Shown: piece by piece, positions 20,774 to 56,622 of the stretch | Layout: each line of letters opens with the position of its first letter | Numbering within the stretch: position 1 is the first letter of the stretch | Assembly (NCBI GenBank): GCA_035764505.1 | Contig: DASTZC010000226.1 | Coordinates: forward strand, 1-60,887 | Direction of reading: 5' to 3' | DNA length: 60,887 bases | From: Candidatus Polarisedimenticolia bacterium | GTDB taxonomy: Bacteria > Acidobacteriota > Polarisedimenticolia > Gp22-AA2 > AA152 | Made by a program: the position numbers and the translations under genes | The notes under the pieces: generated by a model | Database searches by the model: none | What the model saw: the letters and a program-made list of their open reading frames with translations, nothing else | Told to the model about the DNA's origin: nothing

Positions 20774-23088
<2,315 letters not shown>

Positions 23089-23089
<1 letters not shown>

Positions 23090-24045
23090 CAAGCCACGGC
23101 CGGAACCGCCGCCTTCGCCGTTCGATCGTAGCCGTACACGGGCTCGGCCCACGCGCGGTATTCGGGGATTCTGCCCCGCACCACGCGCTCGTAGAGCGAT
23201 TGCAGCTGCAGGGTCAGGGGACCCGGAGCGCCGTTGGCGATCACGCGCCCGTCGATGCGCGTCACCGGAGCGATCTGGGCGGCGGTCCCGCAAAGGAAGA
23301 GCTCGTCGGCCACCACCAGCTCCGCCCGGTCCACTCCGCGCTCGTCGGTGCGGACGTCCAGCACCTCGCGCGCCATGCGGATGATGGTGTCCCGCGTGAT
23401 CCCTTCCAGGATTCCCTGGGAAGCGTCGGGCGTCACCAGGCGCCCGTCGCGCACCATGAACAGGTTCATGGCGCTCCCCTCCGCGACCCGCCCTTCCTCG
23501 TTGAGGAAGATCGCCTCGTCGAAGCCCCGATCGCGCGCCTCCTGCGCCGCCAGCGCGGAGTTGACGTAGGCGCCGCAGATCTTGGCCCGGCACGGAATGG
23601 AATTGTCCTGAAGCCGCCGCCACGATGAGATGCCGCAATGCAGCCCCTTGCGGGTGTCGACGTAGTCCCCCATGGGCACCGCGATCATCGCGAAGGACTC
23701 CTCAACAGGCAGGTTGACGCCCACCTTGGTGGCCGCCTTGAAGGCGATGGGCCTGACATAGACGTCGGTCTCGAAACCGTTCAGGCGGATCAGCCGCGCG
23801 GCAATCCTGGCCAGATCCGCGGGCTGGGCCAGCATCCGGATCTTCAGGAACTTCACGTTCTGGGCCATGCGCGCGAAGTGATCGGTGGCACGAAACAGCA
23901 GCACCTCGCGGCTCTCCTCGTCACGGTAGGCGCGAATCCCCTCGAACACTCCCGTGCCGTACTGCAGGCCGTGGGTCAGCAGCGGAATGCGCGCCTGCGA
24001 TTCCGGCATGAAGTGTCCGTTCAGGAAAACAACCTGCTCCGCCAT
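23089..24045 (-). CDS. ilvE: branched-chain amino acid aminotransferase
   Basis: 318 aa counted from MAEQVVFLNGHFMPESQARIPLLTHGLQYGTGVFEGIRAY. It shows class IV aminotransferase motifs and has a GAGGAGGGA RBS. Confidence 0.9.
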
Positions 24046-24073
24046 GTTGATCCCTCCTCGGCCTCGCGGCCGC

Positions 24074-25405
24074 TCAATAACCGCCGACCATCGCCTCGCG
24101 GCTCGCGGAGCCGTCGAGCAGGTGGCGGGCAACGGCATGTTCCGTCAGCGCCTCCCGGAAGTCGGGATGCGCAATGGCGATCAGCGCCGCGGCGCGCCGC
24201 CGCAGAGAGAGGCCGTGAAGCCGGGCGACCCCATACTCCGTGACCACGGCATGCACGTCGGCGCGGGTTGTCACGATCCCGGACCCGAGGTCGAGCATCG
24301 GCACGATGCGCGACACGCGCCCGCCCTTGGCGGTGGACGGCAGTGCGATGATCGGGATGCCGCCCTTCGAGCGCGCCGCACCGCGGATGAAATCGACCTG
24401 TCCGCCGAAGCCGGAGTAGATCGACGTCCCGATCGTGTCGGCGCACACCTGCCCGGTCAGGTCGATCTGCAGCGCCGAGTTGATCGCCACCATGCGGTCA
24501 TTGGCGGCGATGACGAAAGGATCGTTGGTGTACTCGGTCGGGTGCAGCTCGATGATCGGATTGTTGTGGACGAAGCGGTAGAGCCTGCGACTTCCCATGA
24601 GGAATCCCGCCACGACCTTCCCCCGGTGCAGAGACTTGCGCTCGTTGTTGATGACCCCCGATTCGATCAGGTCCACCACCCCATCGGAGAACATCTCGGT
24701 GTGCACTCCCAGGTCCCGGCGGTCTCCCAGCTCGGCCAGGACCGCGTCGGGGATGCCGCCGATGCCCATCTGCAGGGTGGCGCCGTCCTCGATCAGCCCG
24801 GCGACGTGCCGCGCGATGCGGCGGTGCAGCTCGCCGGCGGGATGCCGCGGCAGCTCCAGGACCGGATGGTCGGTCTCGATGATGGCGTCGAGCTTGCGGA
24901 TGTGGATGAAGGAGTCGCCCAGGGTCCGGGGCATCTGCTGGTTGACCTCGGCGATGACCAGGCGCGCCGCCTCGGCCGCCGCTTTGGTGGTGTCCACGCC
25001 GACGCCGTATGAGCAGAAGCCGTGCTCGTCGGGCGGCGACACCTGGATCAGGCAGATATCGATGGGCATCGCCCCGCGGAACAGCGAGGGGATCTCCGAA
25101 AGGAAGATCGGCATGTAATCGGAGCGCCCGTCGTTGACCGCCTCGCGCACGTTGGCGCCGACGAACATGGCGGTGTGCCGAAAGTGCGGCTCCATGCCCG
25201 GCCTCACGTAACCGGCATCTCCCAGGGTGAGCAGGTGGATAATCTCCACGTCGCGCAGGGAGGAGGCCCGGGCGATCAAGGCCCGAACCAGGGCCTCCGG
25301 CTCGGATGCCCCCGGATGGATGTAGACGCGCTCTCCCGAGCGGACGCGCTCGATGGCCTTCTCGGGCGTCGTCACCTTGGCACGATAGGCCGTGAACCAG
25401 CTCAC
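24074..25405 (-). CDS. acetyl-CoA hydrolase/transferase family protein (4-hydroxybutyrate/succinyl-CoA:acetate CoA-transferase-like)
   Basis: 443 aa from a GTG start (VSWFTAYRAKVTTPEKAIERV) with a GGGAGG RBS. Motifs are GIGGIPDAV, SGFGGQVDF and IIALPST. Confidence 0.85.
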   Translation of the reverse strand: MSWFTAYRAKVTTPEKAIERVRSGERVYIHPGASEPEALVRALIARASSLRDVEIIHLLTLGDAGYVRPGMEPHFRHTAMFVGANVREAVNDGRSDYMPIFLSEIPSLFRGAMPIDICLIQVSPPDEHGFCSYGVGVDTTKAAAEAARLVIAEVNQQMPRTLGDSFIHIRKLDAIIETDHPVLELPRHPAGELHRRIARHVAGLIEDGATLQMGIGGIPDAVLAELGDRRDLGVHTEMFSDGVVDLIESGVINNERKSLHRGKVVAGFLMGSRRLYRFVHNNPIIELHPTEYTNDPFVIAANDRMVAINSALQIDLTGQVCADTIGTSIYSGFGGQVDFIRGAARSKGGIPIIALPSTAKGGRVSRIVPMLDLGSGIVTTRADVHAVVTEYGVARLHGLSLRRRAAALIAIAHPDFREALTEHAVARHLLDGSASREAMVGGY

Positions 25406-26565
25406 GGGCGCCTCCCTGCCGCGGCTGACGGCGCCATCGGCTGGGGCGCCCCGACGATTTCGCCGATCGCGGTGGCGCGCAGCCCGAATGCCCGGCCGAC
25501 GCTGGGACAGACCAGCTCGCCCTGGTAGAGATAGAGGCCCCGGGCGAAGCCCGGCTCGCGCATCAGAGTGGAGTCGAGGCCGCGCGCTGCCAGCGTCTCC
25601 ACGAAGGGCAGGGCGGCATAAGTAAGCGCCAGGGACGCGGTTCGGGCCACCGCGGAGCTCAGGTTGGGCACGGCGCAATGGACCACTTCGTGCTCGACGA
25701 AAACCGGATCAGCCAGCGTGGTCGGCCGGCTGGTCTCAACGCACCCCCCCTGGTCAATCGCCAGGTCGATGATCACGGCGCCCGGCTTCATCCTTCGCAC
25801 CACCTCACGGGTGACGATCAGCGGCGCCCGCTCGCCGCGCACCAGGACCGCTCCGATGACCACGTCGGCATAGGCGACAGCGCGATCCACCGAAGCCAGG
25901 TGCGAGACCTCCGTGACGATGCCACGCCCGAAGATCTCGTCGGCGCGGCGCAGCGCCGTCAGGCTCGTGTCGAGCAGCGTGACCTGAGCTCCATTGCCGA
26001 CCGCGCGGCGAGCGGCCGCGACCCCGGAAACGCCGGCTCCGAGAATGACGACGTGCGCCGGCGGGATGCCAATCGAGCCGCCGAGCAGGATGCCGCGGCC
26101 GCCGGAAAGCGTCTGGAGCTGGTGGGCCGCGACGCCGACCGCGAGCTGGCCGCCAATCTCGCTCATGGCGTGCAAAACCGGCGCGTCGCCGTGGGAGTCC
26201 TCCAGGATCTCCAATCCGATCAGCGTGACGCCGCGGCGCAGAAGGGCCTCGAGGTGGCTCCTGGAGGCGGCTGCGAGGTGGTGGAAGGCGAGGATGGCCT
26301 GGCCCTCGCGCAGATGCGGAACTTCCTCCGCGGCCAAAGCCGAGACCTTTATCACCAGGTCGGCCCTGCCGAACACCTCGTCGGTGCCGTACACCACGCG
26401 GGCCCCGGCGTCGGCGTACTTCTCATCCGCGAAGCGCGCCGCCCGCCCCGCTCCCGACTCGATCACCACCACGTGTCCCTGATGGACGAGGGACCGTGCC
26501 CCGGCCGGCGTCAGCGCCACGCGATGCTCCGTGGCGACGCGCTCCCGCGGGACTCCCAGGATCAT
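25402..26565 (-). CDS. ald: alanine dehydrogenase
   Basis: 387 aa counted from [27 protein letters not shown]. The Rossmann motif VVILGAGVSGVAAA is present, and the layout is AlaDH/PNT N- and C-domain. Confidence 0.85.
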   Translation of the reverse strand: MILGVPRERVATEHRVALTPAGARSLVHQGHVVVIESGAGRAARFADEKYADAGARVVYGTDEVFGRADLVIKVSALAAEEVPHLREGQAILAFHHLAAASRSHLEALLRRGVTLIGLEILEDSHGDAPVLHAMSEIGGQLAVGVAAHQLQTLSGGRGILLGGSIGIPPAHVVILGAGVSGVAAARRAVGNGAQVTLLDTSLTALRRADEIFGRGIVTEVSHLASVDRAVAYADVVIGAVLVRGERAPLIVTREVVRRMKPGAVIIDLAIDQGGCVETSRPTTLADPVFVEHEVVHCAVPNLSSAVARTASLALTYAALPFVETLAARGLDSTLMREPGFARGLYLYQGELVCPSVGRAFGLRATAIGEIVGAPQPMAPSAAAGRRP

Positions 26566-28022
26566 GATGCTCCTCCGCGGAGGGCGGGGGTCGCCTGACG
26601 GATCCCCTCCTCCAGCGCGTTGAGGTTCAGCTCCAGGGCGCCCGGCTTGAGCGCGTGCTGCTGCAGTGCCGCGCGCACGGCCCATACCGGAAGAATGCCG
26701 GTCCTGCCGATCCAGGCCCCGAGCGCCACCAGGTTGGCGGCGCGCGCCGAGCCCAGATGCTCGGCGATGGAGGTGGCGGGAACGGCCAGAACTTCGCGGT
26801 CGGACAACGGTGGGGGATCTTGGATCAGCCCCGAATCGTAGATGATGAGACCCTGGGGCCCGACGTCCTCCGCGAATTTCATCAGGGAGGGCCGATTGAA
26901 GGCGAACAGCACCGAAGCCTCGCTCACCAGCGGCGAGTCGACTTCGTGTTCGCTCAGAATGACGTGGCAGTGGGCCGTGCCGCCGCGCATCTCGGGGCCA
27001 TAGGAAGGCAGCCAGGAGACGGCCCGGCCGCTCAACATGCCAGCCTCCGCGATGACCGTGCCGAGGAACAACACTCCTTGGCCGCCGAAGCCGGCCACCT
27101 TGATGCGCGGATTCCGGAAGCGCGGCTCAATCGCCTCGGCCGACCAGCCGTCGTGCGTCCCTCCCGGAACGGCCTGGGCTGCATCGAGCCCCAGGACTTT
27201 TGGCACATCGACCGGCTCGACGCGGCGGCGTGCTCCGGTGGGTTTGCGGCCTTCGACTCTCACGTCGCGCTTCACACCCAGCGGAAACGTCTTCGTCATG
27301 GTTTCCAGAACCCACCTCGCCGAGTCGGGAGGCTCCTGCTTCCAGCCCGTCGGGCAGGGGGACAGCACCTCGACGAGGGAGAAGCCCTTCCCTTCCATCT
27401 GGTTCTTGATCGCCTTGCGGACGGCCCGCCGGACCTGCAGGTCATGCCGACCGTCCCCGAGAGCCACCCGCTCAAGGTAGACGGGGGCATCCAGCGAGCC
27501 GAGGAGCTCGCAGACCTTGATGGGATAGCCCTCCTGCTCGGGGGCGCGTCCGCGGGGCGTGGTCGAGGTGATCTGGCCCACGAGCGAAGTGGGAGCAAGC
27601 TGCCCGCCCGTCATCCCGTACAGGGCGTTGTTGATGAAGATGACGGTCAGGTCCTCGCCGCGCGCGGCCGCCTGCAGAATCTCGTTGCCACCGATGGCGG
27701 CGAGATCCCCATCTCCCTGGTAGACGATGACGATGCTGTCGGGTCGCGCCCGCTTGACCGCGGTGGCGACCGCCGGGGCCCGCCCGTGCGGCGCCTGGAT
27801 GTGCCCCACGTCCAGATAGTAGTAAGCGAAGACGGAGCAGCCGACGGGATTGATGAAGACCATCCGATCGGCAATCCCGAGGTCGTCGACCGCCTCCGCC
27901 ACCAGCTTGTGCACGTTGCCGTGGCCGCAGCCCGGGCAGTAATGGGTGACCGTCGGGTCTCCGTCCTTGCGATCGAAGGCCGGATAGAACGACCGGGGCC
28001 GCTCATGAAGCAGCTTGAGCAT
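26562..28022 (-). CDS. 2-oxoacid:ferredoxin oxidoreductase, fused beta (TPP-binding) and gamma subunits
   Basis: 486 aa. The N-terminal part is HYCPGCGHG...[15 protein letters not shown]...[11 protein letters not shown] (beta). The C-terminal part is [22 protein letters not shown]...SYGPEMRGG (gamma). Confidence 0.88.
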
Positions 28023-29145
28023 GACTCACCTCCCGCGCCGGCTTGAACGCCGCCGCCCAGCGCCGTCCCTCCATGACCCGGACCGCCTCGGCGGCAATCT
28101 CCTCCGCCGAAGGGACATTGCCTCCCATGCGACCGTAGAAGGCGACCGGACATCGCTCGCCGGCAGCCAGCCGCACGTCCTCCACCATCTGCCCGGCGCT
28201 CAGCTCGACGACGAGGATCTTCGCGACGCGGTGCGCCAGCCGGCGCATGACCGCCTCGGGAAAAGGCCAGAGCGTCAGCGGCCGCAGCAGCCCGGCCCGA
28301 ATCCCCGCGCCTCGCAGCAGGACCAGCGCACGGCGCAGCACGCGCGCGACGATGCCATAGCCCACCAGGAGGATCTCCGCGTCGGCCACGGCCTCTTCGA
28401 CGTAGCGCACTTCGCTTTGCCGGATCGTCTCGTATTTGACCTGCAAACCGCGCTCGTGCTGCTCGAGGGCGTCGTGGGACAGGAAGATGGAGGTGATCAG
28501 GTTGTGCCGGGTGGCGGCATCGCCCCGCACCGCCCAGGGCCGCGCGGGTGGAGCCGTCGGTGCGAGCGGCAGCTTCACCGGCTCCATCGTCTGCCCGACG
28601 AAGCCGTCCGCCAGGACGAAGGCCGGATTGCGGTACTTGTCCGACAGCTCGAAGGCCAGCACCGTGAGGTCGGCCATCTCCTGCGCCGAGGCAGGCGCCA
28701 GGACGATGTTGCGGTAGCAGCCGTGGCCGCCGCCCTTGACCACCTGGAAGTAGTCGCCCTGCTCGGGACCGATGTTCCCGAGGCCGGGGCCCCCACGCAT
28801 GATGTCGACGACGACGATCGGCAGCTCGGAGCCGGCCGCGTAGGAGACCCCTTCCATCATGAGGGAGATGCCCGGGCTGGAGGACCCGGTCATCGTGCGC
28901 TCACCGGCCGACGATGCGCCATACAGCATGTTGATGGCCGCAACCTCGCTTTCCGCCTGCAGGAAGGTGCCGCCGCAAGGCGGGAACAGCCGCGCCGCCG
29001 TTTCGGCCAGCTCGCTCGCCGGCGTGATGGGATATCCGTAAAACGATCGGCAGCCGGCCAGCAGGGCTCCATGGATTGCCGCCTCGTTCCCTTTCATCAG
29101 GCGCGGCTCGGCGCGTCGAGCTCCCTTAGGCAGCGGGCTGCTCAT
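28003..29145 (-). CDS. 2-oxoacid:ferredoxin oxidoreductase alpha subunit
   Basis: 380 aa counted from MSSPLPKG. Motifs are [29 protein letters not shown] and [22 protein letters not shown] lies 7 nt upstream of ATG 29145. Confidence 0.88.
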
Positions 29146-29374
29146 CGGCATCCCTCCTGTAGACGGCGATGGCCCCCGGCTCGGGGCAGGCATAGAAACA
29201 GTGGCTGTCGGCCAGGCACCCCTCGCCGGCAAACCTGACCGGGTGATATCCCTGGTGATTGAAGCCCGCGGAATGCGACAGGCAATTCCCCGGGCAGACG
29301 GAGATGCACAGGCCGCACCCCTTGCATTCCTCGCTGTTGATCACGACCCAACCGTGCGCTCTTGCACCAGGCAT
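29126..29374 (-). CDS. 4Fe-4S ferredoxin-type delta subunit of the oxidoreductase
   Basis: 82 aa counted from [30 protein letters not shown], with a second cluster motif [22 protein letters not shown]. First gene of the operon. Confidence 0.8.
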
Positions 29375-29652: not shown

Positions 29653-30792
29653 TCACACTCCAGCTTGAGCCGCCGCGCCGGCCGGCGACGGCCGGTAGGC
29701 GCACCACGGATCGCTCGCGAGATAGTTCCCCGTCAGCGCGAAGGCGCGGGATCGCGAGCCGCCGCACACGCCGCGGAACTCGCATCGTCCGCAGACGCCG
29801 AGGAAGCTCTCCGGAGTGCGGAGGCTGCGGAACAGCGGAGTCTCCCGGTACATCGATGCCAGCGGCGCCGTTCGGATGTTGCCCGCCTTCACCGGGAGGA
29901 AGCCGCTCGGATAGACGTCGCCGAGGTGTGAGACGAAGAGAAAGCCGTTGCCTGAATTGACCCCCTGGGAGGCAAGGCCGATCGTATGCCCGGGTCCTTC
30001 GGTGCGCACGAGCTGAGCCGGCAGCGACTGCCCCGAGCGGCTCCCCGTCGGCGCGGAGCCCCGCAAACCTTCCCGCATCATGACGTAACGGCGGAAATGC
30101 GGTGCCTCGGTGACCTTCACGAGGAACTCGGAGCGCTTCTGCACCTGATAGAGGATCTCGAACAGCTCCTCGCACTGCTCGGCGGTCAACCCGTTGAGCT
30201 TCGATCCCCTGCCCGTCGGGATCAGGAAGAAGACCTCCCAGAAGACCACGCCGAGGCGGGTCACCAGCTCGGCCATCTCCTCCAGATAGGGCGCCGACTC
30301 GGCGCACAGGGTCGTATTGATCTGCAGCGGAAGATCGTGCCGGTGGGCCCATTCCACCGCCTGCATCGTCTTGGCATAGGCGCCGGGAACGCCGCGGAAG
30401 GCGTCGTGCAGCGCCGCGGTCGGGTAGTCGAGACTCTGCGCCATCTGGCTCAGCCCGGCCTGCTTCAGATCCTTCACCACCTCCTCGGTCAGCCGCTCGG
30501 TCGCGGCCGGGATGGTGGCCATGCGAAGGCCGAGGTTCGCTCCCGTGCGGATCAGGCGCATCAGGTCGGGGCGCTTGAGCGGATCGCCGCCGCTCAGAAT
30601 GAAGATCGGAGTACCGAGCCCGGCCGCCTGGCGCAGGAGGTCCTCTCCTTCCTCGGTGGTCAGCTCGTCGCAATGGCGCAGCGGCTGGGCCGAGGCCCGG
30701 CAGTGCAGGCAGGCGAGATCGCAGGACTGGGTGGTCTCCCAGATGATCAGGAAGGGAGTGCGATCGTAGTCCAGCCGGGGCATCTTCATCAT
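29653..30792 (-). CDS. radical SAM/SPASM domain protein (TIGR04053-like)
   Basis: 379 aa. The CxxxCxxC motif is ETTQSCDLACLHCRA. Other motifs are ILSGGDPL, VFWEVFFLIPTGRG and VTEAPHFRR, and the C-terminal SPASM Cys cluster is CGRCEFRGVCGGSRSRA...DPWC. Confidence 0.8.
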   Translation of the reverse strand: MMKMPRLDYDRTPFLIIWETTQSCDLACLHCRASAQPLRHCDELTTEEGEDLLRQAAGLGTPIFILSGGDPLKRPDLMRLIRTGANLGLRMATIPAATERLTEEVVKDLKQAGLSQMAQSLDYPTAALHDAFRGVPGAYAKTMQAVEWAHRHDLPLQINTTLCAESAPYLEEMAELVTRLGVVFWEVFFLIPTGRGSKLNGLTAEQCEELFEILYQVQKRSEFLVKVTEAPHFRRYVMMREGLRGSAPTGSRSGQSLPAQLVRTEGPGHTIGLASQGVNSGNGFLFVSHLGDVYPSGFLPVKAGNIRTAPLASMYRETPLFRSLRTPESFLGVCGRCEFRGVCGGSRSRAFALTGNYLASDPWCAYRPSPAGAAAQAGV

Positions 30793-31324
30793 GGCGACCG
30801 CTCCTTCGACGCCCGCGTGCCACGCCTCGAGGCGGGAAACGGGGACAGCCTTCGCAGGAGGTACAGCAACGACTGTGCCACGCTCATTCCCCCTGCGCTC
30901 GGCGCGGTGCCCCGGCGACCCCGGCTCACGGGCCTTCAGGCGACCCGGTTGCCTCTAAAAATTTCGCAGAGCCTCTCGATTCCCCGCAAATCTTTCGCTC
31001 GCCTCGAGCCCGGTTCCTCGCTCTTGCCCGCGCGCAAACCGGTTTTTGCAGCGTTTCCATGGGGAAGCAGAGATTTCGTTCCTGTGTTTTCGCCGTGCAC
31101 GCTTCTTGCAGTTCTGCTGCGGCGGGCAGGGGCAGGCAACGGCAAAGGGTTGCAGCCGTTCTCTCTCCCGGCGCCCTGGATCCAAGCAAAAACCGCGAAC
31201 GTCTCGCGGGCGACTCCCCCCCAGCAGGGAGGTGATGAAAGGCCGGGGAGCAGAGTGAATGCGGGATTCACCGTGGGATGAACGGACCAACTCCTTCCCT
31301 CAAGGGGAAGCACACGAGGCGCAC

Positions 31325-32617
31325 ATGAGAACGCTAACCAAGATCGTCGCGGTGACGGCCTCCGTGGCGGCGCTCTTCCTGTGGGGGACGCCGGTATGGG
31401 CGTTCCACGACGGTGGCGTCGCCTATTGCACGGGCTGCCATAGCATGCACAGCTCCCCCAGCTCGAGCCACCTGCTGATGAAGAGCGACGCCGGTTCCAC
31501 CTGCCTGCGCTGTCATGAAAGAACCGGCGACGCCGGGCCGAGCAGCTATCACATCAGCACTCCGGCGAGCGAGTTGCTGAATGCGACCGACATTCCCAAG
31601 CAGCGCACACCCGGTGGTGATTTCGGCTGGCTGCGGCAGAACCTCACGGCCCTCTCCACCTTCGGCAGCCCCGTCAACAACCAGGGATTCACTCGCGGTC
31701 ACAACATCATCGCGATGGACAACAGCTACACCTTCGTCGACGGTCCCACCGCTCCGGGCGGGACGATGCCGGCGTCGGAGCTGACCTGCATCAGCTGCCA
31801 TGATCCGCACAGCCGCGCCCGCCGTCTCGACGACGGCAGCGTCGTCTATCCCACCAGCGTCGGCGTCTCCGCGCCGATCGAGGAGTCGGGCTCCTACGGC
31901 TTCGTCCCCGGCCCGGGGATGGCGGCGGGGGTCTACCGCCTGCTCGGCGGATCGGCCTACCAGGCCTTCGACAGCGGCCCGAGCTTCCCCGGAGTGCCGG
32001 CGGCCGTGGTTCCAAACACCTACAATCGGACGGAAGCCGCGACCCAGACCCGGGTGGCGTACGGGCACGGCACCACGAGCGGCTACGTCTCCTGGGGCAA
32101 GTGGTGCTCCACCTGCCACACCGGCATGCACTCCGACACGGCCTCGAACCTCGTCCACGTCGTCGACGCTCAGCTCAACGCGAACGCCGACATCTACAAC
32201 TCCTACATCAAGACCGGCGATCTCACCGGGAGCTCGGCGAACTCTTACACGTCGCTCGTCCCCTTCGCCAAGAACACCAATGACGTGGCGACCCTCGCCC
32301 TCCAGGCCCTCAACGACGATTCCGATCTGACCGGCCCGGCCGGGACGGATCGAATCGGATGCCTCTCCTGCCACCGCGCGCACGCCAGCGGCTGGAGATT
32401 TGGGATGCGCTGGAACAGCGAGTCGGAGTTCCTGACGCTGGCCGACGGAACCGGCGCCCCGGTCTACCCGGGTGTCGATGCCGGCATGGGCAACCAGGGC
32501 CAGTACAACCGCGGCTACACGGTGAACCAGATGAAGGCGGCGTACTACGATCGTCCGCCGACGGTCTTCGCCGCGGCTCAGAGGCAGTACTGCAACAAGT
32601 GCCACGCGAAGGATTGA
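31325..32617 (+). CDS. omcS: hexahaem c-type cytochrome, OmcS-like (cytochrome-filament family)
   Basis: 430 aa with signal peptide ...GTPVWA|FHDGGVAYCTGCHSMH. There are six CxxCH motifs (CTGCH, CLRCH, CISCH, CSTCH, CLSCH, CNKCH). From memory of G. sulfurreducens OmcS, colinear motifs are FHSGGV..C.GCH.MH, GPSSYHIS, TPGGDFGW, YNRTEA.TQTRVAYG, YNSY.K.GDLTG, CLSCHRAHASG and C-terminal CNKCHAKD. Confidence 0.85.
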   Translation: MRTLTKIVAVTASVAALFLWGTPVWAFHDGGVAYCTGCHSMHSSPSSSHLLMKSDAGSTCLRCHERTGDAGPSSYHISTPASELLNATDIPKQRTPGGDFGWLRQNLTALSTFGSPVNNQGFTRGHNIIAMDNSYTFVDGPTAPGGTMPASELTCISCHDPHSRARRLDDGSVVYPTSVGVSAPIEESGSYGFVPGPGMAAGVYRLLGGSAYQAFDSGPSFPGVPAAVVPNTYNRTEAATQTRVAYGHGTTSGYVSWGKWCSTCHTGMHSDTASNLVHVVDAQLNANADIYNSYIKTGDLTGSSANSYTSLVPFAKNTNDVATLALQALNDDSDLTGPAGTDRIGCLSCHRAHASGWRFGMRWNSESEFLTLADGTGAPVYPGVDAGMGNQGQYNRGYTVNQMKAAYYDRPPTVFAAAQRQYCNKCHAKD

Positions 32618-32657: not shown

Positions 32658-32683
32658 AGGGGCCGGCCGCTTGGCCGGCCCCT
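32658..32683 (+). terminator. GC-rich stem-loop (attenuator/terminator-like) after the OmcS-like gene
   Basis: AGGGGCCGGCC-GCTT-GGCCGGCCCCT, a perfect 11-bp stem 40 nt after the stop, followed by TGTCGTGTT (a weak U-tract). Confidence 0.5.
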
Positions 32684-32707
32684 TGTCGTGTTAGGCTGAG
32701 GCCCGAA

Positions 32708-34138
32708 TTGGGCCGATGGCCCGTCCTTCCCGGGGACGATTTGAGAGCGCTGGCAGGAGCTTTGCTCGTTCTCTTCGCAGCGGCCGGTTGTGCCGCTTCG
32801 AGGCTCGTCGACAAGTCGCCGCTTCCGAGGGACGAGGCCCGCATTCATCTCTACCTCCTCCCGCTTCCCCCGGACGCTGCCCGCCTCGAGGTTCTCCTGG
32901 AGGGAGCCTCCGCCGTGCGGGAAGATGGATCGCTGATTCCGCTGCAGCTCGCATTCAATCGCCTCCGAGCGGGAGATCCCGATCGCGAGCGGCGGCTCGC
33001 CTCGGGGCCGGCCCCCCCCGGCCGCTACGCCGGATTGGAGCTGCGGATCGGCTCCGCCGCCCTGACGGGCGAAGGGGGCGGCGCCCTCGGCACCGACGCC
33101 GCCGTCACGGTTCCTTTTCTTTTCACGGTGCAGGAAAAGCAGCCCGTGGTGATTTCGCTGCGTCTCGATCATGCCGGCTCGATGACCGAGGGGATGCGCT
33201 TCCAGCCGTCCTTCGTGGCCGAGGCGCCGCCCCGGCCGCCGTCCGGCCTGATTGCCCTGGCCAGCGCGCGCGGCTCGGACGAGCTGGCGATCTTCGACAA
33301 GGTGTCCGGCCGGATTGCCGGAATCGTCCCGACCGGACGCCGTCCGGGGGGGCTGGCGCTGGATTCCGCCCGGCGGCGCGCCTACGTTGCCGTCACCGGG
33401 GAGGATCGGATTGAAGCGATCGGGCTCCTCGAGCAGGCGGTGCTCGCCCGGCTGAACCTGCGGGTCGGGGACGAGCCGGTGGAGGTCGCGCTGACCCCCG
33501 ACGGCCAGACGCTGGTCACCGCGAATGCCGGGTCCAGCAGCGCCAGCATCGTGGACGCATTGGCGCTCGTGGAGCGCGCGCGCGTTTCGGTCGGCAACGA
33601 GCCGGGATCGGTTCTCCTGGATCGGGCCGGACGGCGCGCCTACCTGTTCAACACCGGCTCGAGCAGCATCACCGTCATCGACGTGGCGGCGCGTGCGGTG
33701 GTGGCCACCCTGGGGACGGAGGCGGGGCCGCTGCGCGGACAGCTCGACCGGGACGGCAGGCGCCTGTACGTCATTCATCGCGCCTCCCCTTACCTGACGA
33801 TTTTCGACACGAACACGCTCGCGGCAGTCGCCCGCACCTACGTCGGTCCCGGGGCGACCGCGCTGAAGGTCGATCCGAAGACCGACCGGATCTACCTGGC
33901 TCGCCGAAAAACGGGGATCCTCGAGATCTTCGATCCTGCCTCCCTCCTGCCCACCGACTCCATCCCGGTGGACGGCGAGATCTCCTTCGTCACCATCGAC
34001 GACGAGGGAAACGCCCTGGTGCTCACCTTGCCGGGGTCCGGGGAGGCGCGCCGGATCGGAATCGCCGGGAAGACGGCCGCCGCGCGCACCGACGTCGGGG
34101 CCGATCCCCGTTACGCGGCCCTGGTCGGAGAAAGGTGA
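32708..34138 (+). CDS. YVTN-type beta-propeller lipoprotein with N-terminal DUF4382-like domain
   Basis: 476-aa track ORF with a TTG start. An alternative TTG at 32741 gives an ideal lipoprotein signal (M)RALAGALLVLFAAAG|C. The propeller blades repeat the patterns P.G.A.D...R.YV.......I.VID. Confidence 0.75.
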   Translation: MGRWPVLPGDDLRALAGALLVLFAAAGCAASRLVDKSPLPRDEARIHLYLLPLPPDAARLEVLLEGASAVREDGSLIPLQLAFNRLRAGDPDRERRLASGPAPPGRYAGLELRIGSAALTGEGGGALGTDAAVTVPFLFTVQEKQPVVISLRLDHAGSMTEGMRFQPSFVAEAPPRPPSGLIALASARGSDELAIFDKVSGRIAGIVPTGRRPGGLALDSARRRAYVAVTGEDRIEAIGLLEQAVLARLNLRVGDEPVEVALTPDGQTLVTANAGSSSASIVDALALVERARVSVGNEPGSVLLDRAGRRAYLFNTGSSSITVIDVAARAVVATLGTEAGPLRGQLDRDGRRLYVIHRASPYLTIFDTNTLAAVARTYVGPGATALKVDPKTDRIYLARRKTGILEIFDPASLLPTDSIPVDGEISFVTIDDEGNALVLTLPGSGEARRIGIAGKTAAARTDVGADPRYAALVGER

Positions 34139-34176
34139 CGGGTGGTGTGGATCGCGGACGCGCGCGCGCGCCGGGA

Positions 34177-36348
34177 ATGCAGCCAAGGCGATTTCCGGCA
34201 TCGTGGCTCGCCGTCCTGGTGGCCGGCTTGCTCATCCCCACCTCCGGGGCGCGCGCCCAGGACGTCTCGGGATACGCGGAGCTGGCGGCCTCGCGGGACC
34301 GCACTCACCTGGTGGATGGAGGGGTCACGGACGTGCTGAGCGACTCGTTCCTGCAGCGCTACAGCGTCGACTTCCTGTGGCGGCTGTATCCGAATCTCCA
34401 GGTAATGGCCGGAGGTCTGTACGAGCGCGACTTCACCGAGGCCTCCCTGAACGACGTCGATCTCGAGACGCTGCAGCGCAAGGTCCGGCCCTACGTCACG
34501 GCCACGCTGCGCACGCCGATCCAGTCGGCCTCGGTGGGCTGGTATCGTAACGAAGACACCTTTCGTTCGGACGGGTCCTCCCTCGGAGCCGTGCAGGAGA
34601 TCGTGAACGCCACCCTGGGATGGAGGCCGGAGCGCTTTCCGCAAACCACCCTGCGGTTCCTGCGCACCCACGACTACGATCCTGACCGCGTGATCCAGGA
34701 CACCAACACCGACCTGCTCGACCTGGTCCTGGAGGACGAGGTGAAGGACTCGGTGCACATCTACTACCGAGGGGCCCTCGAGGAGATTGACGATCGGATC
34801 AACGACTTCCAGCTGAACCGCATCTCCCATTCGGGACGGGTCGACTATGGCGACTCCTGGTGGGACCAGCGCCTCCAGGTGGGCGGGGAATACGACATCC
34901 ACAAGACGTCGGAGGAGGTGACGAGCAGCGGCGGCGGCGAGGTGCTCACGCCGCTGTTTCCCATCGGCGGTCTGTCGGGCCTCGACGATACCCCGGCCGA
35001 CGGCTTCCTGGCGGCCACCCCCGCGCTGATCGACGAGGATCGGATCGCCGGCGTCGGGCTCGACCTCGGGCTGCCGCCGATCGGCGGGGACGTCCGTCCG
35101 CGCAATCTCGGGCTCGACTTCGGGGCGACGACCCGCGTGAACACTCTCTTCGTCTGGGTGGACCGCGACCTCCCGGCCGCGGTCTCCGGCTCGTTCTCCT
35201 GGGAGCTGTACACCAGCGCCGACAACGTGACCTGGCAGCTCGAGCAGACCATCTTTCCGGCGCTGTTCGGGCCGTTCGTGACCCGCTTCGAGATTCGCTT
35301 CACCGCCGTGGACGCCCGCTACGTCAAGCTCGCGGTGCGTCCTCTTGCCGCCAGCGTTCCGAACGCGACCCAGTTTCCCAATATCTTCATCACCGAGCTG
35401 CAGGCCGCCGTCCGGACCGCGGCGGCGGATGCGACCGGCCGGAACGAGCTGACCACACAGCTCCTGACCACGAGCCTGAGGCTCCGGCTGACCGATCGTC
35501 CCGCCGTGACCTACGAGTTCTCCGCCTTCGGTCGGAAGATCGAGGACTTTCCGGTCTACGGCACGATCTCCAACGGATTCTCGCTGCACCACGTCTTCAA
35601 TCCGGTCTACTCGACGATGGCCCGCGTGGCCCGCGAGGACAGCCACGAGTCGGATGGCGACCGCACCACCTACCTCTATACGGCGTCGCTCCGGGCGGTT
35701 CCGCTGTCGACCCTGGAAAGCACGCTGGTGTTCAGCGGCCGATCCTCGGAGCACGAGGGACTGCCAAGCGATTCGGCCGGGGTGCGCTGGACGACGCAGG
35801 CCGAGCTCTACCGGGGAATCAGCGCGCGGCTGGGTCTCGGGCGCTCGGCCGTGCTGACCGAGGACGGAGAGCGCACGGAGATGCGGGAGGTCGACGTCCT
35901 GACGACCCTCGACCCGCACCCGGCGGTGACCCTGAGCCTGCTTGTTCAGGACGACTCGGGGAACCGCCAGGGCGGGCACCTGGTGGAGGAGGTGCCGGTG
36001 GAGCGGCAGGCCGAGGAGGCGGGAGTGACGTTCCGGCCCTTCGCCACCCTCTATATGTTCTTCTCCTACCGGCGGGACCGCGAGAATTCCCTGCCGGTCC
36101 GCTTCACGCGCAGCTCGTCGGCGAGCTGGGCCCCTTTCCCCGACGGGCGGCTCCAGATTCTGTTCCGTTTCGACGACTCGTACCGCTCGGATTTGGAGGC
36201 GGAGAGCCGGATCTTCTCTCCACGTGTGCGCTGGAACGTCACCGACCGCTGGTATCTCGAGGCCGCCTACGAGAGCGCCGAGTTCAATTCCGCCCTGGAC
36301 GATCGCTCGTCCGACATCGTAACGTTCAGCACGCGGATATGGTTCTGA
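34177..36348 (+). CDS. large outer-membrane beta-barrel protein with internal discoidin (F5/8 type C)-like segment
   Basis: 723 aa counted from MQPRRFPASWLAVLVAGLLIPTSGARA|QD. Amphipathic strands run throughout. The central NTLFVWVDRDL...WELYTSADNVTWQLEQ...FTAVDARYVKLAV is discoidin-like. The C-terminal beta-signal ...VTFSTRIWF ends in Phe. Confidence 0.7.
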   Translation: MQPRRFPASWLAVLVAGLLIPTSGARAQDVSGYAELAASRDRTHLVDGGVTDVLSDSFLQRYSVDFLWRLYPNLQVMAGGLYERDFTEASLNDVDLETLQRKVRPYVTATLRTPIQSASVGWYRNEDTFRSDGSSLGAVQEIVNATLGWRPERFPQTTLRFLRTHDYDPDRVIQDTNTDLLDLVLEDEVKDSVHIYYRGALEEIDDRINDFQLNRISHSGRVDYGDSWWDQRLQVGGEYDIHKTSEEVTSSGGGEVLTPLFPIGGLSGLDDTPADGFLAATPALIDEDRIAGVGLDLGLPPIGGDVRPRNLGLDFGATTRVNTLFVWVDRDLPAAVSGSFSWELYTSADNVTWQLEQTIFPALFGPFVTRFEIRFTAVDARYVKLAVRPLAASVPNATQFPNIFITELQAAVRTAAADATGRNELTTQLLTTSLRLRLTDRPAVTYEFSAFGRKIEDFPVYGTISNGFSLHHVFNPVYSTMARVAREDSHESDGDRTTYLYTASLRAVPLSTLESTLVFSGRSSEHEGLPSDSAGVRWTTQAELYRGISARLGLGRSAVLTEDGERTEMREVDVLTTLDPHPAVTLSLLVQDDSGNRQGGHLVEEVPVERQAEEAGVTFRPFATLYMFFSYRRDRENSLPVRFTRSSSASWAPFPDGRLQILFRFDDSYRSDLEAESRIFSPRVRWNVTDRWYLEAAYESAEFNSALDDRSSDIVTFSTRIWF

Positions 36349-36938
36349 GGAGGACCCGCCCCTTGAAGCGCATCTGGATGATGTCCCTGGCCGGCATGCT
36401 GGCGCTGCTTTCGGCGTGCGCCACCTCGCAGGGGGAACGCACGACGTTCCACGACCCGAATATGGACTTCAGCACCCTCCACAAGGTGGCGGTGCTTCCC
36501 TTCGCGAACCTGACGACGAGCGCCAAGGCGGAGGAGCGGGTGCGCGACGTCTTCATGACGATGCTGCAGGCGACCGGCGCGTTCTACGTCCTTCCTCCCG
36601 GCGAGGTGGCCCGGGCCGTCTCCCGGACCGGTCTTGCCAATCCGTCGGCGCCGACCGCCGAGGAGGCGGTGAAGCTCGCGAAGAACCTCGAGGCCGACGC
36701 GATCCTGACCGGCAGCCTGCTGGAATACGGCGAGGTGCGCTCCGCCTCGGCGAGCGCCAACGTGATCTCGGTGAACGTCGCGATGATGGAATCCACCACC
36801 GGCAAGGTCGTCTGGAGCGCTTCCGCCACCGAAGGGGGGATCGGCGCCGGCAAGCGCCTCTTCGGAGGAGGCGGGGAGCCGATGAACGTGGTCACGGCCA
36901 AAGCGGTGGAAGACTTGATCCACGAGCTTTTCAAGTAG
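36339..36938 (+). CDS. TolB-N/LpoB/DUF799-like lipoprotein
   Basis: It sits inside the tail of track ORF 34860..36938. MVLRRTRPLKRIWMMSLAGMLALLSA|C is a lipobox. The core reads VAVLPFANLTTS...ADAILTGSLLEYG...GKVVWSASA. Its start overlaps the barrel gene's stop. Confidence 0.7.
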   Translation: MVLRRTRPLKRIWMMSLAGMLALLSACATSQGERTTFHDPNMDFSTLHKVAVLPFANLTTSAKAEERVRDVFMTMLQATGAFYVLPPGEVARAVSRTGLANPSAPTAEEAVKLAKNLEADAILTGSLLEYGEVRSASASANVISVNVAMMESTTGKVVWSASATEGGIGAGKRLFGGGGEPMNVVTAKAVEDLIHELFK

Positions 36939-36939
36939 A

Positions 36940-38094
36940 ATGACGCCCCCTAGGGAACCTCGCATGATGCTCATCCGCCGGCGGCTCGCGGCCGCCCTGA
37001 TGGCCGTTGCGGCCGCGGTCGGCTCTCGCGGCCGGCTCTGCGCGGAGGACCTGCGGGTCCCCGCCCCCGCGGAGGAGATCGCCGTCTTCCCGTTCGAGGA
37101 CCTTTCGGCCGCGGCGGCGCCGGCGGAGGAGATCGGGGAGCGCTTCCGCGAGGCCCTGGAGGCCCGCGGACTGCGGGTCCTCCGGCCGGACGCGACGGAA
37201 GCGTTTCTGCGCCGGCACAGGGTGCGCTGGGTCGGCGGGATCTCCCGAGAGGTGGGAAAGTCGCTGCGCGAGGAGACCGGGGCCGGCGCCGTGCTGGTCG
37301 CCTCGGTCGATCTCTTCGACGCAGGCTCCGTCCCACGCTTCGCGCTCACCGCGCGCCTCGTGTCGGCCGGGCCGGAGCCGCGCATCCTCTGGATGGATGC
37401 CGCCTCGGGCGCCGGCGACGAGAAGCCCGGGGTGCTCGACCTCGGCCTGGTCTACGACGTCGCGCTCCTGGAGGAGCGGGCCATCGACCGTCTGGCCGGC
37501 TCGCTCGATCCCGTCTGGAGGCTGGGCCACGTCAAGCGTCCCGGGCCGGAGAAGGCGGCGAGAAGCCGCCGGCCGCGCAGTTTCTTCCGGTCTCCGGAAG
37601 GGGCGGGCGCCTGGAAGGCGGCCGCGAAGACCGCCGTGCTTCCCTTCGCCAACGGGACGACGGCGCCGGATGCCGGCCAGATTGTCACCCTGCAGATCGT
37701 TCGCGCCCTGGTGAACGGGAGCAATCTGGAGGTGCTCGAGCCCGGAGTCGTCCGCGAGACGCTCCTCCAGTCGCGGCTGATCCAGGAGGAAGGGCTTTCG
37801 GTCCCGCAAGCCGACCTGCTGCGCGCGGTCCTGGGTGTGGACCTGGCGCTGTTCGGAGAAGTCACGGAATATGTCGAAGGAGGTCCCGCAGGGTTCGAGC
37901 CGGCAGTCGATTTTTCGGTGCGCGCGATCGACACGCAGCGCGGGCAGGTCATCTGGTCCTCGATCAGCCAGGAGCGCGGCTTCGAGGGAGCCGTCTTTTT
38001 CGGCCTCGGCCGGATCCCGACCGCCCACCTCCTGACCTCAGAAATGTCCCGGTCCCTCGTGGCGACTCTCGAGGGTCCCAAAGGAGCACGATGA
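36940..38094 (+). CDS. secreted protein with two tandem TolB-N/LpoB-like modules
   Basis: 384 aa. Module 1 is IAVFPFEDLS...VLVASVDLF. Module 2 is TAVLPFANGTT...DLALFGEVTEYV...GQVIWSSIS. Both resemble the preceding lipoprotein. Confidence 0.65.
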   Translation: MTPPREPRMMLIRRRLAAALMAVAAAVGSRGRLCAEDLRVPAPAEEIAVFPFEDLSAAAAPAEEIGERFREALEARGLRVLRPDATEAFLRRHRVRWVGGISREVGKSLREETGAGAVLVASVDLFDAGSVPRFALTARLVSAGPEPRILWMDAASGAGDEKPGVLDLGLVYDVALLEERAIDRLAGSLDPVWRLGHVKRPGPEKAARSRRPRSFFRSPEGAGAWKAAAKTAVLPFANGTTAPDAGQIVTLQIVRALVNGSNLEVLEPGVVRETLLQSRLIQEEGLSVPQADLLRAVLGVDLALFGEVTEYVEGGPAGFEPAVDFSVRAIDTQRGQVIWSSISQERGFEGAVFFGLGRIPTAHLLTSEMSRSLVATLEGPKGAR

Positions 38095-39794
38095 GCACGC
38101 CAAAGGTCCCGTCGAGAATCCTGCTGTGCGGCCTCGCGGCCTTGATCGGCGCCGCAGCGTCTCCCGCGCGGCTGCCGGTATTCGCCGGCAAGGAGGCGGT
38201 GGCCACCGTGAACGGCGAGCCGGTCACGCTGGAAGATCTGGCTCGCCACGTGGGCAGCCTGCATGAAGGGATCGCCGAGCCGGCGGCCCCGGTGAAGAAG
38301 GCGGATCCCTCCCGGATCCTGCAGCGGATGATCGATGCGCGGCTGGTGGCGCAGGAAGCCAGGAGGATCGGCCTCGATCAGCTCCCCGACATCAAGAAGC
38401 GCCTCGATGACGACCGCCTCGATCTGGTGAAGAGCCTCGTGGTGCGCGACGCGGTGAAGGATGTCCCGCCCCCCTCCCCCGCCGAGATCGACCAGCGCGC
38501 CCGCGAGTCGGTCCGCGATCTGCGGGTCGAGTCGGTGCTCTTCACGCGCGAGGAGGACGCCCGCGCCTTCGTCGCCGCGGTACGCGGCGGAGGCGACTTC
38601 GGCGCCCTGGCGCGCGCCGCCTTCTCCGCCGGCAAGGCCCGGGAGCCGGGGCCCGCGGCCTCCATGAAGCCCGATGCCTTGCGCCCCGAGGTGGCCGATC
38701 CGATCCTGGCGCTGAAGCCCGGCGGCGTGACCGAGCCGCTCCGCATCACGGAGGGGTTCACCGTCGCGCACCTCCTCGAGATCCGGTATCCCGTGGAGGC
38801 CGCGGACCGCGCCGCCGCCGAGCGCGACCTCCTGGAGCCGCGGCGCCAGGCGCGCCTCGAGCAGGCGAAGGTTCGGATGCGCCGCGATTATTTCCAGGTC
38901 GACCAGGGCCTGCTCGCAAAACTGGATTATGAGGCCGCCTCACCCGGCCTCGCTGCCCTGCGCAAAGACACCCGGGTGCTGGCGCGCGTCAAGGGAGATC
39001 CGCCGGTCCTGGTGAAGGACCTCACGGCGGAAGTGGAGAAGAACTTCTACCATGGCGTGCAGGAGGCCATCGAGCGCAAGCGGGTCAACGAGAGTCTTCC
39101 CCGGCTGCTGGATCGGGTCCTGATGGAGCGCGCCACGCTGCTGGAGGCGAAGCGGCTCAAGATCGAGAGCACCGCCGAGTTTCGCGACACGCTGCGCGAG
39201 CGCGAGGACGAGCGCCTGTTCGAGGCCTTCCTGCAGAAGGTGGTTCATCCGGACATCCATCTTACCGACGACGAGCTGCAGCGCTACTATGCCGCCCATG
39301 CGAAGGACTATGCATCGCCCGAGATGATGCGCCTGGAGGGGATCGCTTTCGGCCGGCGGGAAGATGCGCAGTCGGCCTTCCAGAAGCTCCAGAAGGGGGC
39401 CGATATGAAGTGGATGCAGGCGAACGCGCCGGGCAGGGCGGATCGGGAGCATTTTCCCGAGATGGCCGATCTGGGGAACGGCCTCGTGGTCACCAGCACC
39501 TTTCCCGAGCCCATCCGCAACGCGGTCGCCGGCGCCACGGGCGGCGACCTGCGGCTGGCCTCCTCCCCGGCCGGGCCGCACTACGTCCTCGCCATCCGCC
39601 AGGTGGTTCCGGCCTCGCCGCGCCCCTTCGACAGTGTGCGCAGCGACATCGCCTCGCTTCTTTACAGGCAGAAACGGCAGGCGGCGCTCGACGAATGGAC
39701 CGCGAAGCTGCGGGCCGCCTCCGTGGTGAAGACCTTCGCCGACGGCAAGACGCTCGCCTCGCTTCTGCAGGAAGCTTCGGGGAAGCGCAGGTGA
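38091..39794 (+). CDS. SurA-like peptidyl-prolyl cis-trans isomerase (parvulin/PpiC-type), periplasmic
   Basis: 567 aa with a signal peptide. The SurA-N-like start is VATVNGEPVTLEDL. The parvulin-like segments end in GGVTEPLRITEGFTVAHLLEIR and SSPAGPHYVLAIRQV. It has an ATGA overlap upstream and a GTGA overlap downstream. Confidence 0.8.
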   Translation: MSTPKVPSRILLCGLAALIGAAASPARLPVFAGKEAVATVNGEPVTLEDLARHVGSLHEGIAEPAAPVKKADPSRILQRMIDARLVAQEARRIGLDQLPDIKKRLDDDRLDLVKSLVVRDAVKDVPPPSPAEIDQRARESVRDLRVESVLFTREEDARAFVAAVRGGGDFGALARAAFSAGKAREPGPAASMKPDALRPEVADPILALKPGGVTEPLRITEGFTVAHLLEIRYPVEAADRAAAERDLLEPRRQARLEQAKVRMRRDYFQVDQGLLAKLDYEAASPGLAALRKDTRVLARVKGDPPVLVKDLTAEVEKNFYHGVQEAIERKRVNESLPRLLDRVLMERATLLEAKRLKIESTAEFRDTLREREDERLFEAFLQKVVHPDIHLTDDELQRYYAAHAKDYASPEMMRLEGIAFGRREDAQSAFQKLQKGADMKWMQANAPGRADREHFPEMADLGNGLVVTSTFPEPIRNAVAGATGGDLRLASSPAGPHYVLAIRQVVPASPRPFDSVRSDIASLLYRQKRQAALDEWTAKLRAASVVKTFADGKTLASLLQEASGKRR

Positions 39795-43076: not shown

Positions 43077-43981
43077 GACGCAGAAACGCCACCGCCCGGC
43101 TCCTGCGCGCCGTCTTGTGCCTGGGACTCGCAGGCGGATTGGCCCTGGCCGCTTCCGGGGTGCGGCTCAGGCCGCTGCCGCCGATCTACGTCGATGCCGC
43201 GGGAGCCCCGCTCCGCCAGCCGCAGGGAGTCGGCTGCGGAGCATCGACCCTGGTGGTGGCCGACACCGGCAACAGCCGCCTCGTCCCCTACTCGATCGCC
43301 GGCGAGCAGATCACGGCCGGCAAGGAGATCCGCATCCCGGAGCTCGTTTCGCCGTCGCGGGTCCAGGTGGCGGAAGACGGAACCCTCTTCGCTCTCGACG
43401 GCAAGAGCCACAAGATCTTCCGGCTGTCGACGGCCGGGGCCTTGCAGGGCACGGTCCCGGTCCCGGCTGAACCGGCGGCCGGCGCTCCCTTCGTTCAGAG
43501 CTTCCGGCGCGCTGCTTCGGGGGACCTTTATCTTCTCGACGTGGGAACGGGCCGTGTCGTGGTGCTCGCCCCCGACGGCGCGCTCCGCCGGACGATTCCG
43601 CTGCCCGCGCGCGGCGGCTCCTTCACGGATCTTGCAGTCGATTCGGCCGGGACGGTTTTCGTCCTCGACAGCGCGGCACGCCGGCTGCTGGCAGCCCGCG
43701 CCACGGACACCGGACTCGCGCCCCTGGCCGACGGCATGAAGGACGAGGTGGAATTTCCCATCGCCCTGGCGGTTCACGACGGCAAGATCTTCGTCGTCGA
43801 TCAGTCAGGAGGCGGAATCGTCATCCTGGGGCCGGACGGCTCGTTCCACGGGCATCAATCGGGCATGGGCTGGAACGTCGGGTCGCTGCGTTACCCGAGC
43901 GATCTCTGCGCCCTCTCCGGCCTTCTCTTCGTGGCCGACCGCGAGAATCAGCGCATTCAGATTTTTTCCCTCGCCGATTGA
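43073..43981 (+). CDS. NHL-repeat beta-propeller protein, secreted
   Basis: 302 aa with an ATGA overlap onto the cytochrome stop and signal peptide MRRRNATARLLRAVLCLGLAGGLALAA. NHL blades are VADTGNSRLVPY, YLLDVGTGRVVVL, FVLDSAARRLL, IFVVDQSGGGIVIL and LFVADRENQRIQIF. Confidence 0.85.
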   Translation: MRRRNATARLLRAVLCLGLAGGLALAASGVRLRPLPPIYVDAAGAPLRQPQGVGCGASTLVVADTGNSRLVPYSIAGEQITAGKEIRIPELVSPSRVQVAEDGTLFALDGKSHKIFRLSTAGALQGTVPVPAEPAAGAPFVQSFRRAASGDLYLLDVGTGRVVVLAPDGALRRTIPLPARGGSFTDLAVDSAGTVFVLDSAARRLLAARATDTGLAPLADGMKDEVEFPIALAVHDGKIFVVDQSGGGIVILGPDGSFHGHQSGMGWNVGSLRYPSDLCALSGLLFVADRENQRIQIFSLAD

Positions 43982-44062
43982 GACTTCCTCGAGGGATTTT
44001 GCGCCTTCGTGCCATTCTCAATCTGGCACATCGCTTGCTCGAGTAGTACCAAGAGGCTCGAA

Positions 44063-56619: not shown

Positions 56620-56622
56620 TTT

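Follow-up and report, generated by a model that had tools for sequence, protein, structure and literature searches.

A hexahaem cytochrome gene of the OmcS family

We analysed positions 1-60,887 of contig DASTZC010000226.1 of a Candidatus Polarisedimenticolia bacterium (Acidobacteriota), a stretch of 60,887 nt with a GC content of about 67%; this stretch is called the window below, and all positions refer to it. On its forward strand, an open reading frame (ORF) at 31325-32617 (430 codons followed by TGA) encodes the precursor of a c-type cytochrome with six haems, a relative of the nanowire subunit OmcS of Geobacter sulfurreducens, and it is directly followed by genes resembling those of the osc cluster of that species. 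It is almost certain that this is an OmcS-family hexahaem gene embedded in an osc cluster, and we consider it probable that its product, the window protein, is the polymerising subunit of an OmcS-type nanowire of an uncultured Acidobacteriota bacterium.

The fraction of G+C at third codon positions (GC3) of this ORF is 0.87, which is usual for a coding sequence of such a contig. We preferred the start codon at 31325 because the homologues are 428-432 aa long and because this ATG is preceded, at 6-9 nt, by a GAGG-like ribosome-binding site; a start at 31259, which would give a protein of 452 aa, was ruled out, as these homologues cover 100% of the 430-aa form. The first 26 residues of the precursor (31325-31402), MRTLTKIVAVTASVAALFLWGTPVWA, display the n, h and c regions of a Sec signal peptide with a predicted cleavage between VWA and F, so that the mature protein is predicted to begin with FHDGGVAYCTGCHSMH. 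In the alignment, precursor residue 27 is paired with the first residue of 6ef8_A, the mature OmcS chain, whose sequence begins with FHSGGVAECEGCHTMH. Since the alignment starts at these two residues, the predicted cleavage site corresponds to the N-terminus seen in the OmcS filament. Exactly six CxxCH motifs occur, at positions 9, 34, 129, 235, 320 and 397 of the mature protein, which align with positions 9, 47, 140, 239, 328 and 400 of OmcS. The initial annotation, made from the letters of the sequence, had counted six such motifs, and the count stands; it had also stated that OmcS ends, like the window protein, in CNKCHAKD, which the alignment with 6ef8_A bears out, and that the two proteins are of one length, which is about right (432 aa for the OmcS precursor and 407 aa for its mature form, PMC6584659, for 430 aa here).

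A phmmer search against all chain sequences of the PDB returned a single match, 6ef8_A (also deposited as 6nef), with E = 2.2e-92 and residues 27-430 of the query aligned to residues 1-407 of OmcS; the BLASTP identity to OmcS is 45.5% over 431 columns, with 51 gap positions. An AF2 model of the window protein, built with 58 homologues, has a mean predicted local distance difference test (pLDDT) of 79 and a predicted template modelling score (pTM) of 0.80. Searched with this model, the PDB again yielded 6ef8_A alone in Foldseek (E = 2.8e-33, template modelling scores 0.78/0.83), all the remaining matches having E > 1. Confidence in the monomer model is low only at residues 22-46, where the signal peptide ends and the N-terminal arm carries the histidine aligned with His16 of OmcS. 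Such a poorly placed arm fits a segment which would pack on a neighbouring subunit, a weak argument coming from a model without haems. Pfam and NCBIfam recognise generic CxxCH domains only in the window protein, neither library holding a model for OmcS or for any Osc protein; this is why public records carry names such as "cytochrome c3 family protein". Homologues are numerous: at least 3412 proteins among the candidates scored have E <= 1e-5, and a library of 1.84 billion representatives contains 511 clusters at 50% identity, of which 153 are at E <= 1e-30.

We placed the window protein in a neighbour-joining tree with 100 bootstraps. It falls in a clade of its own (92% bootstrap), outside both the clade which joins OmcS to the first hexahaem copies of related clusters (97%) and the clade of second copies, called OscC-like (100%). 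The metagenome-assembled genomes (MAGs) of the window clade are labelled Acidobacteriota, Desulfobulbaceae/Desulfurivibrionaceae, other Thermodesulfobacteriota, Ca. Deferrimicrobium, Thermodesulfovibrionia and Schekmanbacteria, and, with less certainty, Bacteroidota, deltaproteobacterial or unclassified. G. sulfurreducens has four paralogues, OmcS, OmcT, GSU2501 and OmcJ, of which only OmcS is known as a wire (PMC12977616). In our tree, the place of its OmcT, OmcJ and GSU2501 is taken by sequences of Citrifermentans, Geomonas and the L1geo and H2geo loci, from clades described in PMC12977616; when the genome-contig collection was scanned with mature OmcS, the best hit had 67% identity and G. 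sulfurreducens itself was not returned. On the evidence of this tree, the window protein belongs to the OmcS family without being strictly orthologous to OmcS or to the OscC-like copies.

Axial histidines and the distribution of His16

In the filament structure that Wang et al. described in 2019, the inter-subunit ligand of OmcS is reportedly His16, binding haem 5'. On this basis and from the conservation pattern reported below, we take residue His16 to be the ligand of the neighbour's haem 5; text searches of the literature for "His16" together with OmcS gave nothing relevant. Of the 12 axial ligands of OmcS, all of them histidines, 11 are supplied from within the subunit, while the twelfth, on haem 505, is contributed by a neighbouring molecule (Filman et al., PMC6584659). 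We aligned with MAFFT 180 non-redundant family members taken from 152 loci of GTDB genomes (L001-L152). Among the histidines outside the CxxCH motifs, H2, H110, H147, H257 and H335 (OmcS numbering) are conserved in 99-100% of these sequences and H16 in 86%, while H63 and H247 are conserved in about 60% and H53, H139 and H309 in less than 32%. The six proximal histidines, the five invariant distal ones and H16 would thus make up 12 ligands, matching the published count of 11 plus one. The window protein possesses all of them, at precursor positions 28, 39, 42, 64, 126, 159, 162, 265, 278, 350, 353 and 427, the five distal ones being at mature positions 2, 100, 136, 252 and 327. The N-terminal arm (31403-31450, FHDGGVAYCTGCHSMH) contains His2, the CxxCH of haem 1 and His16 (precursor His42, nt 31448-31450), the putative inter-subunit ligand; the acceptor expected for the His16 of a neighbour is the haem-5 motif CLSCH, C346-H350 of the precursor (32360-32374), which aligns with C328-H332 of OmcS. 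The histidine which the initial annotation had pointed out at the position of OmcS His16 is therefore present, at mature position 16 (precursor 42), it is invariant in the 58 closest relatives, and the complete set of 12 axial histidines, inter-subunit one included, is found alongside it.

How much does His16 tell us? It is the default state of the family, at 86-97% according to the sample: besides the 180 aligned sequences, it is found in all 119 of the closest relatives that could be scored, and 86 of the 89 scorable representatives at 50% identity have it. The 26 sequences without it (about 14% of the 180) form one or two clades. Its distribution follows the genomic context, as His16 is kept by every copy placed immediately before an OscD-like gene (105 out of 105), a position which none of the 23 evaluable His16-less copies occupies (Fisher p = 2e-11, uncorrected for phylogeny). 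The His16-less paralogues come, for example, from Geomonas, Geomobilimonas luticola, Desulfobulbaceae and Nitrospirota MAGs (for instance at loci L024, L043, L048, L049, L052, L055, L059 and L068:11274-12638). They have in common with the window protein the family, the six motifs and the five distal histidines, and they differ from it in that their N-termini are of the CxxCH-TTPP or a similar type in place of CxxCHxMH, in their enrichment in Met and in their absence from the position directly upstream of oscD. A Met at OmcS position 347 ("RWNM") is found in 69% of them, against 8% of the other sequences, and Met is also enriched directly before their haem-5 motif ("NVMCLSCH"). It is a speculation that Met-347 or Met-327 could serve these paralogues as a ligand of haem 5 in cis; the loss of His16 may then mark monomeric paralogues endowed with such an in-cis ligand. 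This family-wide pattern could help to tell wire-forming from non-wire paralogues.

The window protein is in the cluster-embedded state which retains His16: its gene lies 90 nt before an OscD-like gene and its sequence has none of the traits of the His16-less proteins. The grouping with non-filament families which the initial annotation had proposed to look for was not found, the window protein standing apart from the His16-less paralogues, all of which are encoded outside osc clusters. We had entertained the idea that GSU2501/OscC-like proteins lack His16, from genes of G. luticola (L055) and of H2geo (L048). It was dropped since those genes are not adjacent to osc genes; the true second-copy, OscC-like genes retain His16.

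The osc cluster and the rest of the window

Eight genes, in the order D-E-F-G-H-I-J-K, follow the subunit gene on the same strand, mostly with overlaps of 4 nt. We inferred the letters D to K from the numbering of the G. sulfurreducens locus tags. The first gene, 90 nt downstream of the subunit gene (32708-34138), encodes an OscD-like beta-propeller lipoprotein of 476 aa, with a Pfam YNCE match, an NCBIfam YVTN repeat, a lipobox AAAGC and 36-47% identity to its syntenic counterparts. It is followed by an OscE-like gene (34135-36348) for a protein of 737 aa with a signal peptide, a proposed channel component recognised from its position in related loci (24-38% identity), for which Pfam, NCBIfam and the PDB sequence search gave no match. 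The OscF-like gene (36339-36938) encodes a lipoprotein of 199 aa related to GNA1162, LpoB and CsgG (Pfam GNA1162-like, 1.4e-10; lipobox LLSAC). We located it from the GC3 of its frame, inside the long ORF 34860-36938, and discarded the listed ORF 36416-36943, which is in the wrong frame (GC3 0.48); a gene for 199-202 aa stands at the OscF position in the related loci L233 and L235. The OscG-like protein (36940-38094, 384 aa) has a C-terminal GNA1162-like domain (Pfam 1.9e-4) and 34-43% identity by synteny, its PDB sequence search being uninformative, with weak matches to GNA1162-type lipoproteins only. Then come an OscH-like periplasmic prolyl isomerase or chaperone (38091-39794, 567 aa) with SurA-N and PPIC domains (Pfam Rotamase_2, 1.4e-22), also supported by synteny, and two large cytochromes: an OscI-like one of about 665 aa with 26 CxxCH motifs (39791-41788; 45-55% identity to syntenic genes), and an OscJ-like one with 16 CxxCH motifs (41733-43076; Pfam Paired_CXXCH_1 and synteny), whose start codon is uncertain. 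An OscK-like NHL-repeat protein of 302 aa (43073-43981; Pfam NHL, 1.5e-17) closes the series.

The same order of genes was recovered by tblastn in loci of Geobacterales, Anaeromyxobacter, Nitrospirota, Thermodesulfobacteriota and Acidobacteriota, and the nearest relatives, which are acidobacterial, have it with 71-77% identity. The osc cluster of G. sulfurreducens (GSU2505-GSU2493) likewise has a hexahaem gene followed by D, E, F, G, H, I, J and K, as far as the accounts of it that we could consult go. GSU2501 is oscC, GSU2495 is oscI, a protein of about 70 kDa with 26 haems, and GSU2494 is oscJ (PMC12977616, PMC13194489). To the extent that Shen et al. 2025 is quoted in PMC13194489, OscH acts in folding, OscE, OscF and OscG in secretion and OscD in filament morphology. 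The window cluster differs by the place of one gene (44063-45040, alternatively 44009-45040, +), which encodes a conserved secreted protein of roughly 325 aa with a faint similarity to NHL/SGL repeats: it comes here after the NHL gene, while in most related loci its tblastn counterparts (33-47% identity) lie directly upstream of the hexahaem gene (L141, L130, L114, L122, L152, L137, L118, L081, L151 and others). The identities to the Geobacterales locus L081 are 35-48%. The window cluster also contains only one hexahaem gene, whereas that of G. sulfurreducens has omcS, omcT and GSU2501 (PMC12977616). At the other extreme, three Nitrospirota loci (L010, on CAVOSJ010000004.1, L099 and L115) have 3-5 tandem His16-bearing hexahaem genes before one osc cluster, the OscD- and OscE-like genes being duplicated as well at L010; this suggests an expansion of the subunit gene specific to that lineage.

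The 90-nt spacer which separates the subunit gene from the OscD-like gene folds with -58.6 kcal/mol (z = -5.2). It contains a hairpin (32658-32694, +) made of an 11-bp G+C stem, a tetraloop and a U-containing tail, which resembles a terminator or an attenuator. Equivalent hairpins, the stems of which differ in sequence while their pairing is kept, are found at L233:11330-11355, L235:1906-1931 and L141:~11225-11255. A simple terminator scan left the hairpin unflagged, its terminator-like matches being on the minus strand only, and a sigma-70 scan found no promoters. The hairpin is consistent with a partial termination giving an excess of the subunit transcript. In Geobacter, omcS is under the control of a GEMM/cGAMP riboswitch. 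The window gene differs in this respect, since no Rfam element, this riboswitch included, was found upstream of it, either at gathering thresholds over the whole window or at E <= 1 in 30700-31400.

The GC content is even across the cluster and its flanks, and the cluster therefore appears native to the contig. The taxonomic placement of the contig comes from the glutamyl-tRNA synthetase gene gltX (1255-2691, -), whose product has 75% and 72% identity to its counterparts in MAGs of Acidobacteria and Ca. Polarisedimenticolia; these groups also supply the nearest named relatives of the cytochrome. The genes for tRNA-Glu(CTC), tRNA-Gln(CTG) and tRNA-Ser(GCT) flank gltX, at 649-802 and 2736-2827 (-). 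Divergent from the cytochrome gene, a gene at 29653-30792 (-) encodes a radical SAM/SPASM protein, assigned to the TIGR04053 family with 448 bits and akin to the haem b synthase AhbD. A homologue of it is found near the cluster of the acidobacterial relative L233, beside genes for ResB/CcsB cytochrome c biogenesis and HypF, and this protein may be linked to haem supply. Farther upstream, 20774-29232 (-) contains genes for a malic enzyme-phosphotransacetylase fusion, a class IV aminotransferase, an acetyl-CoA hydrolase/transferase, an alanine dehydrogenase and a two-subunit 2-oxoacid:ferredoxin oxidoreductase. On the other side, 49437-57696 (-) contains two BcrAD/BadFG-type ATPases and two HGD-D subunits of the 2-hydroxyacyl-CoA dehydratase/benzoyl-CoA reductase type. 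A zinc alcohol dehydrogenase and two enoyl-CoA hydratases complete the block, which resembles a cluster for an ATP-dependent benzoyl-CoA reductase or for ring degradation and suggests an anaerobic catabolism of aromatic compounds in the host.

Nanowire subunit or accessory cytochrome

With OmcS (GSU2504; 6EF8, 6NEF), the window protein shares the order of the motifs, the N-terminus FHxGGVAxCxGCHxMH, the C-terminus, the 12 histidines, the predicted fold and the osc neighbours; besides the regulatory difference, it differs in its identity of 45.5%, in its separate clade and in its host, which belongs to the Acidobacteriota and not to the Desulfuromonadia. If it polymerises as OmcS does, the precursor would be exported by Sec and cut after VWA, and it would receive its six haems in the periplasm. 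Its folding would be helped by the OscH-like prolyl isomerase, and the OscE/F/G-like outer-membrane and lipoprotein components would secrete it. The subunits would stack head to tail, His16 (precursor His42) completing the bis-His coordination of the neighbour's haem 5 (CLSCH, 346-350), and the haems of the stack would form an unbroken chain, carrying electrons over long distances and probably fed from the periplasm by the 26-haem and 16-haem cytochromes. Owing to the hairpin which follows its gene, the subunit could be transcribed in excess over the machinery.

That the window protein is a polymerising subunit is what the initial annotation had proposed, and the proposal remains the best reading, though unproven: a loss of ligand histidines and a kinship with non-filament families were both searched for and neither was observed. 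The presence of an osc assembly cluster directly downstream lends it independent support. Several points weigh on the other side. No filament has been observed for the window protein or for its clade, and the PDB has only the OmcS of G. sulfurreducens for this fold. The ligand set was derived from conservation and not from coordinates, and the interface was assessed at the ligand residues only, in a protein which is 45% identical to OmcS and belongs to another clade. Being the family default, His16 is, as far as the alignments tell, necessary and not diagnostic, hence no special feature of the window gene, and its association with the genomic context, uncorrected for phylogeny, opposes to the rest of the family a His16-less set of only one or two clades. 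Polymerisation is not known for the paralogues which lie in the cluster and keep His16, those of the OmcT and OscC types (PMC12977616), and G. uraniireducens has an OmcS homologue and shows no sign of a filament-based long-range transfer (PMC6771412).

The alternative which survives best is that the window protein is an OmcS-like hexahaem cytochrome which does not polymerise, after the manner of OmcT or GSU2501/OscC, or which is only accessory: a monomeric or membrane-associated carrier, or a minor, priming or anchoring part handled by the osc machinery. Wire formation is known for OmcS alone (PMC12977616), and the window protein is outside the OmcS clade, encoded directly before the eight-gene block, as is the case in some genomes where only a GSU2501-like gene precedes this block (PMC12977616). 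The OscC-like and OmcT-like paralogues of Geobacterales are hexahaem proteins as well, with His16 kept and genes directly upstream of oscD. However, the second copies of the OscC-like type group together with 100% bootstrap and without the window protein, which keeps all 12 ligands, His16 included. It is also the sole hexahaem cytochrome of its cluster, and is thus the candidate if the machinery assembles anything, and the terminator-like hairpin suggests a high stoichiometry of subunit to machinery. We regard a non-polymerising role as rather unlikely, though it deserves to be taken seriously.

A second alternative bears on the direction of the current, which would run inwards, with minerals, Fe(II) or partner cells as the donors of the electrons. 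Chains of haems work in both directions, Nitrospirota and Desulfobulbaceae-type MAGs of varied lifestyle have homologous clusters, and nothing in the window fixes the direction. The genes of an anaerobic heterotroph described above (the 2-oxoacid:ferredoxin oxidoreductase and the benzoyl-CoA-reductase-like cluster) nevertheless fit the need for an electron sink, which makes uptake quite improbable; this alternative concerns the physiological direction only and is compatible with the structural explanation. Finally, that the gene has no true kinship with OmcS, being a generic CxxCH-repeat protein such as Pfam and NCBIfam see in it or one of the many spurious ORFs of high-GC DNA, is virtually untenable: this reading is refuted by an alignment at E = 2e-92 which runs over the full length and well past the haem motifs with 45.5% identity, and by a fold matched by OmcS alone, and the GC3 of the ORF and full-length homologues in the hundreds also speak against it.

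Returning to the window protein as the subunit of a wire, we may go one step further, with somewhat more doubt than belief: Acidobacteriota of the Polarisedimenticolia type, a phylum dominant in soil and sediment, might make OmcS-type wires from a third lineage of subunits, one that is neither OmcS nor OscC, with a single hexahaem protein for each osc machinery, and His16 together with adjacency to oscD might be the signature which separates the polymerising from the non-polymerising members of the family. The principle of the OmcS wire is also that of OmcE, a tetrahaem cytochrome of G. sulfurreducens which likewise forms an insulated chain of haems, one of them ligated by a His of the adjacent subunit (PMC9473688, PMC12307469), while its sequence and fold are unrelated, its haems are four and its accessory cluster consists of a porin and beta-propeller lipoproteins. 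OmcS homologues have already been published from diverse bacteria, Anaeromyxobacter and Geoalkalibacter among them (Portela et al. 2024, PMC10954620), the osc machinery has been called "widespread and ancient" (Shen et al. 2025, in the words of the papers which cite it), and in metagenomics omcS is already used, across phyla, to mark "Geobacter-like" electron transfer. Since OmcS and osc homologues are thus known to be widespread, this locus adds an example and not a new principle. The signature made of His16 and oscD-adjacency, if true, would answer the question, raised in PMC12977616, whether OmcS nanowires can be identified from sequence. If the window protein polymerises, OmcS-type long-range extracellular electron transfer would reach into the uncultured Acidobacteriota, an abundant group both of soils and of sediments, and this would have a bearing on the cycling of iron and carbon in these environments.

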